Assembly (NCBI GenBank): GCA_964517155.1 | Contig: CAZFAZ010000056.1 | Location: 1 to 32,538 of the forward strand | Origin: an uncultured Thermoplasmatales archaeon | Lineage (GTDB): Archaea > Thermoplasmatota > E2 > DHVEG-1 | DNA length: 32,538 nt | Direction of reading: 5' to 3' | Shown here: positions 18,001 through 21,000 of the stretch, piece after piece | How positions within the stretch are numbered: the stretch's first letter is position 1 | Layout of the letters: each line of letters begins with the position of its first letter | Program-made: the position numbers

Positions 18001-21000
18001 TCAAAAAACGCTCAGCGTCAATAAGCCCATAAGCAACACCTGTGTAATATGCATCACGCATAAGATAATCAAGCTGATCTACATCAACAGGACTATTTAG
18101 AAACTGCGAAAGATGATCTTTTCCGCTGCCTCGTATAATATCAATTATCTTACGATGATCTATATCATGTTTATTTAAAATATCAAAAACAGTCACAGGC
18201 TCAATTATCTCTTTTTCATAATCATCAAAAATTGCATGTTCGCCAAGTATTAATTTCTCGGTTAAATCCACATGATCAACATTTAGTGCATTTCTAAGAA
18301 TAGATTCAAGAGTATGCGAAAAAGGGCCATGACCTATATCATGTAAAAAAGCAGCACAAGAAACAAGTTTTTTTTCTTCAGTAGTTAGCTTTAATATTTC
18401 GCATGCTTTTACCGCCATAAAATAAGTGCCTAGTGAATGTTCAAGGCGGGTATGATGACCACCGGGAAAAACAAGATGCGCAAAACCAAGTTGTTTTATA
18501 TTGTAAAGTCTTTGAATTTCAGGTGCATCTAAAAAATCAAGGAAAATGCCCTCAATTTTGATATCGCCATGTATTGGATCACGAATTATTTTGCTCATAC
18601 TAAATCATTTTATCCATTATTTATAGAAAAATAAAATATGAAATTAGTTGAAATATTTTATTTTTAAACTTCTTGTAATAAGAACGGCCAGAGACATTTA
18701 ACTCTTTCTTCCCATTCATCAGGATATAAGAATCTTTCAGCCGCAGTAACACTACTTAGAATACTGTTGCCGTCCTGTGGTGTAAAACAAAATCCGATAA
18801 CTTCGTTATCATTTAAAACATGAACTGTTGGTATCACTGCAACTGTTTGATCAAGTAATCGTCCGTAGTGACCATGCTCACGACCAAAAGAAAACACAAG
18901 ATTCGCAGATTTTTTATGCGTAACTGCGACACGCGGATTATCTATAAGTTTTTGTATTACTTCATCTTTTGTGATTTTTTTATCAAGTTTTAAATCATAC
19001 CAGATGCAGTGCATATACTGTGTGTTTAGTTTAAGAGCACTTGAAAAAACATTAAGATCGATTCCCATTGTTTTATATAACTGGTTGACGTCTACTGCAT
19101 GATGTGTACCCATTTTTGGGTCTTTATGACTACCAACTTCGGGTGAAGGTATAAAACTTTTTACCTGACTTATATCATTTGCACGACGAATACACAGGAA
19201 ACGTCCTTCTTTAAGTTGATTCTTGTTATTGTTTCCAATTGCAAGAGTTTTTATAAGAACTGCAATGTTGTGAGTATTGCAACTAACAATATGAATAAAT
19301 TTATCTTTAGGTGTTATCACTTCATCATTGATTCCTACAGCATACATTTTTCCAAAGCCGAATTCTGAGCCTTGAGCCATGAATCCTTTAACCTTGTTTT
19401 TGTATTTGTTGTAGTATTTTTCTTTATTCATCATACCTGTACCTTTTGGGGTACAATCAACTATAACAGATGCACGAGCTATTGCTTCTTCAGCCTCGTA
19501 CATTGGGTCTATTCCTAACTCTTGGAATTCTGTTTTCTTTTCATCATTTACGGCAAGGTTTGCACCTTTTTTTATAAGACCTCTTATTTTAGGTCTATCT
19601 GTAAGATTTGGGCTGTGTTTGTAAAAAGTTACTTCATCTATTCCAAGATCTTCTTGAGCGCTACATAAAAGACCAATTAATGGTTCTCCAATTGTGCCTG
19701 TACCTACAACATGAACAATTTTTTTATCTGACATGTCAATATACGCCTCCCCTTAAGCTTTTTTGGGCAGTTCTGTAATCAACATACTGCATTTAATTGT
19801 TGTCATTTTTAAACATATATCTGTCGTTTTAAAGGGAATAATTTAAAAAGGATGATATATTACACCCCATTCATGGCGCTTCCGTTAGATGTACTGGAAA
19901 AAGCAATGAATCAAAAACTTTCTTTATTGCTAAAAGATAGTAGAGTTATAGAAGGAAAATTAACTGGTTATGATGAATACATGAACATGGTTTTATCAGA
20001 TGTAGAAGAAACACTAGGTGAAACCAAACGTCGTCTTGGTACTGTTATTCTACGTGGAAATAATGTTGTAAGTATTTCTCTTTTATAATACAATTTTTAG
20101 CCTTTTTAGCGAAATGTATATATATGTGTTACTTATTTGATATATATGGAAGGAATCGGGCTGGTAGTTTTTGTTAGAGTGCATCCCATCCCCTCCTAGT
20201 GAGGCCAGCCATCCTTCCTTTTTAACTATGTTATTTTAAAAAAGTTTTAAGTATAGTTTTATTATACATGCAACTGGTTTTTATGGGGAGCAAAATAAAG
20301 GCTACAACAGGCATGAAACTTAGATGCAAAGGCTGGAAACAAGAAGCGATACTTCGCATGCTTGAAAACAATCTTGAAAATGCAGAAATTCCTGAAGAAT
20401 TAATTGTTTATGGTGGAACTGGTAAAGCTGCGCGAAATTGGGATTGCTACAAAAAGATAGTTGAGACACTTAAAAATCTTGAAAACGATGAGACTATGGT
20501 TATTCAATCAGGAAAACCTGTTGCTGTTTTTAAAACTTGGACAAACTCTCCTCGTGTTGTTATGGCTAACTCAAATATTGTCCCTCATTGGAGTTGTTGG
20601 GAGAAATTCTACGAGCTTGAAAGACTAGGACTTATTATGTATGCTCAGATGACTGCAGGTTCATGGTGTTATATAGGAACACAAGGGATAATACAAGGTA
20701 CATATGAAACATTTGCCGCTCTTGCGAAAAAACATTTTAAAAGTAATCTAAAAGGTAAGATAGTTTTGACTGGTGGTATTGGAGGTATGGGTGGTGCTCA
20801 ACCTCTGGCAGTTAAAATGGCAGGTGGCGTATGTATTGCAGTTGAATGTGAAGAAAGTCGCATTGATAGAAGAATTTCCGCAGGTTTTTGTGATAAAAAA
20901 ATAAAAGATGTTAATGAGGCTTTAGAGCTTGCCCAAAAAGCAAAAGCTGATGGAAAAGCACTTGCTATTGGGCTTCTTGGAAATTGTGCAGATATTTTGC

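Follow-up and report, generated by a model that had tools for sequence, protein, structure and literature searches.

The RNA of about 75 bases that is encoded next to lsm, the gene for a Sm-like archaeal protein, is probably an undescribed regulatory RNA. It lies on the forward strand of the window (the whole 32,538-nt stretch of DNA that was analysed), in which the complete element occupies positions 20148-20223. Judging from the sequence evidence, we lean slightly towards an Lsm-linked, trans-acting antisense RNA, in which two helices, P1 and P2, would clamp a loop of about 40 nt that contains the invariant C-rich seed GAGUGCAUCCCAUCCC as well as a U-rich tract. This RNA would pair in trans, probably aided by the Sm-like protein encoded just upstream, and its predicted targets are G-rich GGGAUGGGAUGC forms at the 5′ ends of mRNAs, usually including the start codon. 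The best partner within the order would be the leader of the cdrS-ftsZ gene pair. No paper on this small RNA was found in a literature search.

Structure and genomic setting of the small RNA gene

Regarding the gene itself, the body of the RNA (20148-20218, plus strand) is delimited by comparative helices and is followed by TTTTT at 20219-20223, giving a gene of about 75 nt with the T5 run included. Helix P1 (GGAAGGA/UCCUUCC) joins 20148-20154 with 20212-20218, and helix P2 (GGCUGG/CCAGCC) joins 20159-20164 with 20205-20210. A third hairpin, P3, spans 20192-20204 and contains a constant CCUC/GAGG stem with a variable loop. The fold of the single sequence is unremarkable (z −1.2; 23 of 200 shuffled sequences are as stable), and the case for the helices therefore rests on the comparison between genomes. 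In the phylum-wide alignment A4, compensatory changes are found at 12 of the 13 P1/P2 pairs, and 96.2% of the P1/P2 cells are paired, compared with 79.7% after shuffling and 41-61% when the partners are slid; none of the 500 shuffles matches this value, which comes from an alignment fitted to a covariance model and hence biased toward the structure. The given strand is favoured by 15 G-U cells, compared with 6 on the opposite strand, and the promoter box and the T-run agree with this orientation.

The seed (20177-20192), from which the C-rich run extends to 20196, is both conserved and accessible. The MFE structure leaves it single-stranded apart from its last base and a weak stem of three pairs, whose 5′ strand is located upstream of the seed and whose 3′ strand falls on C35-U37. 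Upstream of the seed are a 5′ pairing tract, GCUGGUAGUUU (20160-20170), which overlaps P2, and a U-rich tract, UUUUUGUU (20168-20175), which is a candidate Lsm-binding site. A U/G-rich tract is kept in the loop among the copies with variable length, and is located 3′ of the seed in families f4 and f10.

The RNA appears to possess its own promoter and terminator. A BRE/TATA-like putative promoter, GCGAAA plus TGTATATATA, is located at 20109-20124 on the plus strand and ends some 24 nt upstream of the initial G of the RNA. AGCGAAAAnCATATATA is found upstream of every lsm-linked copy at a constant distance, the type-2 copies are preceded by another conserved box, CTGCGAAAAAGGTACTTAAAA, and the copies in other orders have TATA-like boxes upstream as well. 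The T5 run (20219-20223, plus strand) is a putative archaeal oligo-T terminator, and a T-rich run follows P1 in most copies.

The neighbouring lsm gene occupies 19852-20088 on the plus strand (Pfam LSM, E = 1.2e-22), and the RNA starts 60 nt past its stop codon. The RNA lies 45-60 nt ahead of hutU, an urocanate hydratase gene from the ORF list (20268-21932, plus strand), for which no functional link to the RNA was found. The first-pass annotation had described an lsm-RNA-hutU synteny, which is borne out here: in 39 of 41 type-1 loci the RNA is preceded by lsm on the same strand, the exceptions being L012, in which the sequence ends 160 nt upstream of the RNA, and L069, which contains no lsm. 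The lsm linkage also reaches seven families beyond the order (9 of 40 loci), and lsm is found directly upstream of the RNA in at least 10 families overall, while the hutU synteny is limited to the order.

The same arrangement might be read as a cis element, that is, an lsm terminator or a hutU leader or attenuator with no separate gene. A hairpin with a T-run right after lsm, followed by hutU on the same strand, fits such an element, and so do two contigs from RNA libraries, one of which joins the lsm 3′ end to the element while the other runs from the element 84 nt downstream. This reading is nevertheless barely plausible, given that a BRE/TATA-like box is conserved inside the short lsm-RNA spacer, that second and third copies have their own conserved promoter box at unrelated loci, and that outside the order the RNA is never beside hutU and is away from lsm in 31 of 40 loci. 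In addition, an invariant 16-nt loop is unnecessary for a terminator. An independent RNA gene, as had been proposed, is thus supported by the BRE/TATA-like boxes at a fixed upstream distance and by the copies elsewhere in the genome.

Regarding transcription, contigs from two RNA libraries cover the element at a depth of 2-4, and one of them starts or ends exactly at 20148 and continues 84 nt past the T-run. Another contig, also of low depth, enters the element from the lsm 3′ end. The library search covered 24 runs from 16 studies, 22 of them recorded as RNA and all with small shares. Among four runs that were compared, X16 gave no coverage and X1 covered lsm only, such gaps being uninformative. 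On this evidence, a discrete small transcript is putative.

Distribution and comparison with known RNA classes

The sequence of the element and the presence of a second copy in the genome, at C32:25309-25385, were confirmed. The RNA is detected by blastn in 61 of 61 genomes of the family, the best copies being 90-100% identical, whereas the neighbouring proteins are 69-89% (Lsm) and 70-88% (HutU) identical across relatives; the RNA is accordingly more conserved than its neighbours, as had been noted. With a covariance model, it is found in 112 of 118 genomes of the order, in 140 of 151 genomes of a class sample and in 115 of 151 genomes of a phylum sample, counts that are inflated by kinship since related genomes are not independent. 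The phylum carriers include records titled Poseidoniales and Methanomassiliicoccales. The order-specificity claimed earlier is therefore wrong, because the exact-pattern search behind it was too strict. GAGUGCAUCCCAUCCC is unchanged in every aligned copy, 28 of the 29 copies aligned, which represent at least 20 families, share an identical GCAUCCCAUCCC, and the exact seed core is present in Poseidoniales, Methanomassiliicoccales and Thermoplasmata records.

Comparison with known RNA classes gave no assignment. An Rfam 15 cmscan of 19800-20500 at E ≤ 10 returned three weak matches, none of which overlaps 20148-20224, in line with the initial statement that the element belongs to no Rfam family. 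ARAGORN calls only tRNA-Ser and tRNA-Gln elsewhere in the window and no tRNA at the RNA in 20 distant loci; moreover, the P3 loop varies among CUAGU, CUCGU, CCUGU and UUCG and thus contains no conserved anticodon. For a box C/D sRNA, the window copy lacks the C box RUGAUGA and the D box CUGA, and the 3′ base of the P1/P2 internal loop is A, G, U or C among the copies, which is incompatible with the conserved A of a K-turn. A box H/ACA sRNA was rejected as well, UUUUU rather than ANA being found after P1. A homologue of DicF was also considered; there is no Rfam match, and the likeness is at most in the mode of action.

Complementary mRNA leaders and start sites

The small RNA appears to have conserved complementary targets with compensatory change, namely the ftsZ leader and the EarA start sites. 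By far its best complement is located 15 kb away in the same window, in the cdrS-ftsZ intergenic leader RNA (4876-4980, minus strand), which is the complement of the small RNA over 18 + 11 nt. The leader lies between a ribbon-helix-helix gene in the cdrS position (4981-5208, minus strand; Pfam RHH_8/RHH_1) and ftsZ (3760-4875, minus strand; Pfam Tubulin and FtsZ_C), which is probably ftsZ2 going by its cdrS neighbour. A cdrS-ftsZ2 operon, co-transcribed and syntenic across archaea, is described in the portion of a published study considered here (PMC7439475). Within the leader, all on the minus strand, are module 1, GGAGGGGAUGGGAUGCAC (4951-4968), which is complementary to the small RNA, the hairpins HP1 (4947-4966) and HP2 (4913-4942), module 2, AAACUACCAGC (4902-4912), which faces the tract GCUGGUAGUUU of the RNA, and the ftsZ Shine-Dalgarno sequence GGAGG (4886-4890).

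The leader holds a perfect 16-mer complement, and the other such 16-mers in the genome are in the RNA genes only. In a seed-filtered scan, the duplex energy of the ftsZ leader is −59.2 kcal/mol, compared with −43.9 kcal/mol for the next site and −38.0 to −42.8 kcal/mol for the best sites of five control seeds. Cofolding of the leader with the RNA gives a ddG of −30.6 kcal/mol, as against −4.4 ± 3.5 kcal/mol for 100 shuffled leaders (minimum −14.3). The leader itself is structured (z −3.5), and the ftsZ-sense strand accommodates its helices better (415 of 419 cells paired, including 25 G-U) than does the antisense strand (392 of 419). The leader is also the best site outside the RNA genes (1 mismatch in 16) in 4 of 5 family genomes that are complete or nearly so. 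It is conserved across the order and the class, with the complementary tracts retained in families f2, f3, f6, f10 and f11, and just 7-10 nt of complement are left in the ftsZ leaders beyond the class.

Co-variation in trans was found between the third RNA base after GGUAG and the opposite leader base, which form U-A in 18, G-C in 11 and A.A in 1 of 30 genomes, so that the compensatory change is consistent in 29 of the 30. On the HutU tree, a single-gene tree in which f2 and f3 nest oddly, the switches between U-A and G-C amount to 3-4 changes, and well-supported branches make 2-3 of these necessary.

In the proposed mechanism, the seed would bind the G-rich tract of the leader, the centre of which would be displayed in a hairpin loop, and GCUGGUAGUUU would pair just upstream of the ftsZ Shine-Dalgarno sequence. 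The two pairings together would thus span a conserved hairpin of the leader. A block of translation would be expected wherever the RNA covers the start codon; for ftsZ, the effect could go in either direction.

The start codons of EarA regulators, of several transposases and of some archaellin genes may be further partners. There are 336 occurrences of the complementary motif GGATGGGATGC in the family, spread over 41 of 41 genomes, compared with a single occurrence of the reversed control. In this genome, 8 of the 15 motif sites outside the RNA genes and the leader fall on the starts of ORFs of at least 100 aa, versus 220 of 20000 random positions. In the window, an ORF of 419 aa and no known family (26576-27832) bears the motif on its start codon, as GGATGGGATGA (27829-27839, minus strand). 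When the best EarA orthologue of each genus was considered, GGATGGGATGC is exact at the start codon in 20 of 30 genera and is kept with at most one mismatch in all 30, between variable flanks. At −43.9 kcal/mol, the EarA duplex does not surpass the best control-seed sites (about −38 to −43 kcal/mol). The motif is found in archaellin leaders in 7 of 30 loci, and the net cofold gain of the archaellin is small (−4.5 kcal/mol). Neither duplex nor cofold energy distinguishes the archaellin, the second EarA paralogue (on C51) or the IS leaders; just the ftsZ leader beats the control seeds, and most targets are therefore not outstanding by energy. The claim that the C-rich loop pairs with EarA and archaellin starts thus stands for EarA as far as conservation is concerned and is weaker for the archaellins, and the EarA energy, at control level, lends it no support. 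A motility switch, which had been put forward as the purpose of the RNA, would not be its whole purpose, because the RNA is kept, with an invariant seed, in family f6, in which an EarA query run without a positive control matched 0 of 26 genomes. Near-matches to the motif also outnumber those to the reversed control in distant lineages (e.g., 32 vs 3), and no common theme was found among the genes at these near-matches, whose products include MutL and a Sel1-repeat protein.

Three different DDE transposase genes of this genome bear the motif at or just upstream of the start codon, and in relatives many of the matches are found at 14-72 nt from a contig end, a position expected for repeated IS copies. 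The RNA might accordingly serve mainly for transposon silencing, its seed having evolved as a cover for IS transposase start codons and its host matches being by-products or later recruits. Bacteria are known to keep transposases under antisense control (IS10 RNA-OUT), and a Sm-like protein of Halobacterium reportedly binds IS transcripts, both of which count in favour of this possibility. We nonetheless regard it as quite improbable: the host sites (the ftsZ leader and EarA) are the strongest and most conserved, the transposase leaders bury the motif in their own hairpins with a net cofold gain of 0 to −2.1 kcal/mol, and IS families turn over fast, whereas the seed is invariant phylum-wide.

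The reading as a trans-acting antisense RNA has a difficulty of its own. In three f12 genomes, the seed is invariant and the FtsZ matches are weak and partial only. Since the seed is invariant without an EarA match (f6) or a close FtsZ match (f12), the proposed targets fail to explain its invariance across the phylum. Target turnover fits uneasily with a frozen 16-nt seed, for which many simultaneous targets would be needed, and the G-rich motif at gene starts might have a role of its own in initiation.

Such invariance, which also extends to lineages without EarA or a close FtsZ, resembles that of core RNP RNAs more than that of typical sRNAs, and it raises an alternative in which the RNA is part of a conserved RNP. 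Its C-rich strand would dock a universal protein (Lsm, a KH-type poly(C) binder or a ribosome-assembly factor), and the G-rich mRNA motifs would be a secondary or lineage-specific use. The ancient lsm linkage fits this alternative. The rRNA of relatives was compared, as the window's own genome contains no rRNA: the sole same-sense match of the C-rich loop in the 16S rRNA of a relative is the anti-SD sequence CCUCCUA, and the CCUCCUA at 20193-20199 is identical to the 16S 3′ end of a relative (GGAUCACCUCCUA). However, this anti-SD-like part is not conserved beyond the class, and the same 16S rRNA contains no complement of at least 7 nt to the C-rich loop. Likewise, no complement to the seed was found in the 23S locus of a family relative (at least 7 nt) or in an f12 23S locus (at least 9 nt), and the 16S and 23S rRNAs of relatives contain neither a copy nor a complement of the seed. 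The alternative also leaves unexplained the 18 + 11 nt of complementarity to the ftsZ leader with its compensatory change in trans, as well as the 336-to-1 excess of the complementary motif, and we consider it unlikely. In the flanks of the rRNA genes, the only match is a tRNA containing AUCCCAUCC in the same sense.

Extending the antisense reading, it is conceivable, although doubtful, that the RNA and the adjoining chaperone gene constitute an ancient riboregulator, with one 16-nt seed unchanged across Thermoplasmatota (marine group II, benthic group D and Methanomassiliicoccales). Lsm-assisted pairing to GGGAUGGGAUGC start motifs would then join division (cdrS-ftsZ2), motility (EarA and archaellins) and transposition. 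If this were true, no other base-pairing regulatory RNA known from prokaryotes would be as deeply conserved, and an archaeal Sm-like protein would gain its first defined natural RNA partner and regulon.

Significance and comparison with known systems

According to the part of a 2023 survey of archaeal Lsm proteins considered here, the role of archaeal Lsm is unknown (PMC10221803); a conserved RNA encoded beside lsm is a concrete candidate partner. The literature search yielded no report of archaeal ftsZ being controlled by an RNA. The cdrS-ftsZ2 operon of Halobacteria contains the same pair, with a small ribbon-helix-helix regulator directly before ftsZ, and the sections of that work considered here deal with transcriptional control by CdrS and CdrL and describe no structured leader or RNA partner (PMC7439475). 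Among archaeal sRNAs, sRNA162 of Methanosarcina mazei is trans-acting, and its two domains reach different mRNAs, including that of a regulator, according to the portion of the report considered here (PMC3510493). The lsm-side RNA likewise is archaeal and is proposed to act in trans through two pairing domains, but the account of sRNA162 in that portion concerns one genus with experimental support (PMC3510493), whereas the present RNA is phylum-wide, lsm-linked and known from sequence alone. A directly testable hypothesis of post-transcriptional control of division follows from the 18 + 11 nt of pairing predicted with the cdrS-ftsZ leader and from the compensatory change in trans. As the carriers include Methanomassiliicoccales, some of which are titled as enrichments or candidate species, its study need not await cultivation of the sediment lineage.

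In E. coli, DicF, one of the Hfq-associated bacterial sRNAs, blocks ftsZ translation. The present RNA shares with DicF its small size, a hairpin, a 3′ U tail, complementarity near the ftsZ ribosome-binding site and a presumed Sm-family helper. It differs from DicF in being archaeal, in being phylum-wide instead of prophage-borne and in having two pairing modules around a leader hairpin, and there is no similarity in sequence or model. RsaE/RoxS of Firmicutes use unpaired C-rich loops (CCCC) to pair with the Shine-Dalgarno sequences of several mRNAs. An unpaired C-rich loop motif directed against G-rich translation-initiation regions of several mRNAs is common to both, while the seed of 12-16 nt described here would cover the start-codon-bearing GGGAUGGGAUGC instead of the Shine-Dalgarno sequence. 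An invariant seed whose apparent targets differ among lineages is a puzzle for RNA evolution. Animal microRNAs of the let-7 type also retain a seed frozen over very long evolutionary distances, presumably via many dependent targets; this likeness is conceptual, with differences in biogenesis, size, protein partners and domain of life.

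The small RNA gene behind lsm and its copies

The small RNA gene lies between the gene for the Sm-like protein (lsm) and that for urocanate hydratase (hutU), and its body (20148-20218, + strand) reads GGAAGGAAUCGGGCUGGUAGUUUUUGUUAGAGUGCAUCCCAUCCCCUCCUAGUGAGGCCAGCCAUCCUUCC, followed by UUUUU. The stop codon of lsm, whose product has 71-78 aa (Pfam LSM, E 1.2e-22), lies 60 nt before the RNA start, and hutU follows 45-60 nt downstream on the same strand. The minimum free energy fold comprises a basal helix P1 (7 bp), a helix P2 (6 bp) and a small hairpin P3; taken as a single sequence, the (+) strand does not fold better than its shuffles (z -1.2). 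No tRNA was called at the site by ARAGORN, and no Rfam model matched at E<=10, as the first-pass annotation had claimed in placing the RNA in no Rfam family. Two of four RNA libraries yielded low-depth contigs over the RNA, for which DNA carry-over is possible: one ends exactly at 20148 and on its other side runs 84 nt past the T-run, and the other enters from the 3′ end of lsm. The RNA is a real and hitherto undescribed feature.

A second copy in the genome, also claimed earlier, was recovered by sequence match at C32:25309-25385. By blastn, the RNA is present in 61/61 family genomes, with 1-4 matches each. Two paralogue types, both terminated by a T-run, can be distinguished. Type 1 is always found behind lsm, with the box AGCGAAAAnCATATATA about 34 nt upstream (same-strand lsm in 39 of 41 type-1 loci of the order; the exceptions are L012, which is cut short, and L069, which is without lsm), and type 2 occupies varying loci with a different conserved upstream box, CTGCGAAAAAGGTACTTAAAA. 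From their sequence and their usual distance from the start site, these boxes look like archaeal BRE and TATA elements.

In one genus, a tandem RNA pair about 160 nt apart is placed between lsm and hutU (L055, 1496-1810 of G039:C37). The second copy, on C32, is preceded at a distance of about 730 nt by a KH-domain-like gene, so named from KH-typical residues, and a putative Rio-type kinase fragment (locus L002, 232-774 and 3-218). Three more hairpins of the same genome, with differing stems and GCAUCCCAUCC-like loops (C88:5057-5116, C36:28412-28477 and C86:6729-6788, all +), may be further RNAs bearing the seed, the invariant C-rich loop stretch, or targets read on the opposite strand; hairpins of the C88 type (GUCUGGA...UCCAGAC, with GGGGGA ahead of it) turn up in three or more further genera (L124, L129, L149).

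Distribution and helix covariation across the phylum

Searches with R1, a covariance model of the RNA, matched 112/118 genomes of the order, 140/151 of the class sample and 115/151 of the phylum sample (E<=0.01), usually with one copy per genome outside the window's family. Contrary to the earlier proposal, the RNA is therefore not specific to the order, and it is much older than had been supposed. An exact 18-letter core pattern, scanned across prokaryotes with one genome per species, gave at least 119 matching stretches; among the matches listed, the titles are Poseidoniales, Thalassarchaeaceae, Methanomassiliicoccales, Thermoplasmata/-ales or similar, and two are labelled bacterial. L335 and L388, titled Lachnospiraceae and Bacteroidaceae bacterium, hold full-length copies of the Methanomassiliicoccales type (27.5 bits), so these contigs are probably archaeal DNA mis-binned with gut bacteria. 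Beyond the order, 9 of 40 loci have a same-strand lsm directly upstream, and as these come from seven families, the linkage is old and must have been lost several times.

GAGUGCAUCCCAUCCC is nearly unchanged in all aligned copies, while the scaffold varies. In A4, a phylum-wide alignment of 29 copies, both-sided changes occur in 12 of 13 P1/P2 pairs, and 96.2% of cells are paired versus 79.7% in shuffles (0/500 reach 96.2%) and 41-61% with slid partners, figures that favour the structure because A4 was fitted to the model. G-U cells number 15 on the given strand versus 6 on the opposite one, favouring the former. The copies form a gene family whose helices are real and which has a putative promoter of its own.

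Complementary leader and start regions

The strongest predicted partner is the 105-nt spacer (4876-4980, - strand) between a ribbon-helix-helix gene and ftsZ, two genes that are likewise on the minus strand. Two of its tracts, GGAGGGGAUGGGAUGCAC (4951-4968, -) and AAACUACCAGC (4902-4912, -), perfectly complement GUGCAUCCCAUCCCCUCC and GCUGGUAGUUU of the RNA in an order that fits antiparallel pairing. A genome-wide duplex scan filtered by seed gave -59.2 kcal/mol for the leader and -43.9 for the next site, EarA on C5; for five control seeds, the best sites lay between -38.0 and -42.8 kcal/mol. Cofolding of leader and RNA yielded a net -30.6 kcal/mol versus -4.4 +/- 3.5 for 100 shuffled leaders. 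By its alignment, the leader too is a conserved RNA: its layout is constant across the order, it folds well (z -3.5), its two helices fit the ftsZ-sense strand only (415/419 cells paired, 25 of them G-U, versus 392/419 on the other strand), and one helix pair varies between G-U, A-U and G-C. AUGGGAUGCA, the centre of its G-rich tract, forms the loop of hairpin 1, a predicted arrangement that suits loop-to-strand recognition. Module 2, the second pairing tract, ends 5-20 nt before the ftsZ Shine-Dalgarno sequence. The complement measures 17 + 9 nt in family f3, displaced by a few bases, 12-15 + 10 nt in f2, 13 nt in f6, 11 + 12 nt in f11 and 8 + 12 nt in f10, and just 7-10 nt outside the class.

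A compensatory change in trans is seen in the 30 genomes for which a type-1 RNA and a leader are both available: the RNA base standing third after GGUAG and its opposing leader base are U-A in 18, G-C in 11 and A.A in one, and no U.C or G.A combination was found. On a maximum-likelihood HutU tree, the U-A/G-C character requires 3-4 changes, with 2-3 of them forced by well-supported branches; this count is rough because the tree is single-gene and midpoint-rooted, with f2 and f3 nested inside f1.

The seed's reverse complement, counted as GGATGGGATGC, is strongly over-represented (336 occurrences in 41/41 family genomes; reversed control, 1). When RNA genes and the ftsZ leader are left out, 8 of the 15 sites in the genome coincide with an ORF start (ORFs of at least 100 aa), versus 220 of 20000 random positions; the genes are two EarA paralogues, an archaellin, three DDE transposases, a membrane HTH regulator and a 419-aa protein, and in most of them the start codon is the second AUG of GGAUGGGAUG. 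The motif does not represent the Shine-Dalgarno sequence; in a relative, 16S rRNA has the 3′ end GGAUCACCUCCUA. The 419-aa ORF (26576-27832, -), which begins on the GGAUGGGAUG motif, and its neighbour of about 400 aa (27878-29077, -) are both without a Pfam family. An intergenic 14-nt seed complement, AGGAGGGGAUGGGA followed by GGGAUGC, has no long ORF behind it (C67:4327-4341, -).

The motif on the EarA start codon is exact in 20 of 30 genera and has one mismatch in the other 10 (best orthologue per genus), amid a variable spacer after a conserved TATA box and variable codons after AUG-CAG. Net cofold gains are -15.7 (EarA, C5), -9.5 (EarA, C51) and -4.5 kcal/mol (archaellin). Of the targets first proposed, the archaellins have the motif upstream of the ORF in only 7 of 30 loci. 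In the transposases (C10:29655-29760, C86:5320-5420, C76:148; also at relatives' contig ends), GGAUGGGAUG is at or just upstream of the start codon, and the gain is 0 to -2.1 kcal/mol, with leaders pairing the site to an upstream CAUCC box. This CAUCC(C) box, found in two of the three (C10, C86), can pair with GGAUGGGAUG into a putative 5′ hairpin that sequesters the site, as is typical of IS elements.

Proposed antisense pairing and related literature

The EarA query found no match in f6 (0/26 genomes), where the RNA is present in 29/32 and the seed is equally invariant. The same invariance holds in three near-complete f12 genomes (G249, G282, G290), in which the FtsZ of the window has no more than weak, partial matches (33-35% identity, ORFs of about 240 aa), suggesting a divergent or reduced FtsZ in this family. 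As no complement was found in 16S or 23S rRNA of relatives either, no examined partner explains the phylum-wide invariance; either the seed is fixed by many targets, or the strand is additionally bound by a universal factor. The proposed motility switch would cover only part of the RNA's role. In the best-supported mechanism, the invariant seed would pair antisense with mRNA start and leader regions, the class-conserved partners being the cdrS-ftsZ leader and the EarA starts, and Lsm would be a likely helper.

No account of the RNA was found by full-text search of the literature on Thermoprofundales/Thermoplasmatota sRNAs, Methanomassiliicoccales ncRNA/Lsm, archaeal sRNA with Lsm/ftsZ, Thermoplasma Sm-like proteins or EarA sRNA. 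In the parts covered of an Lsm survey, no RNA gene is listed beside lsm; its neighbours there include L37e, regulators and RNA-binding proteins (PMC10221803). The pair of ribbon-helix-helix regulator and ftsZ corresponds to what is described as the cdrS-ftsZ2 operon (PMC7439475).
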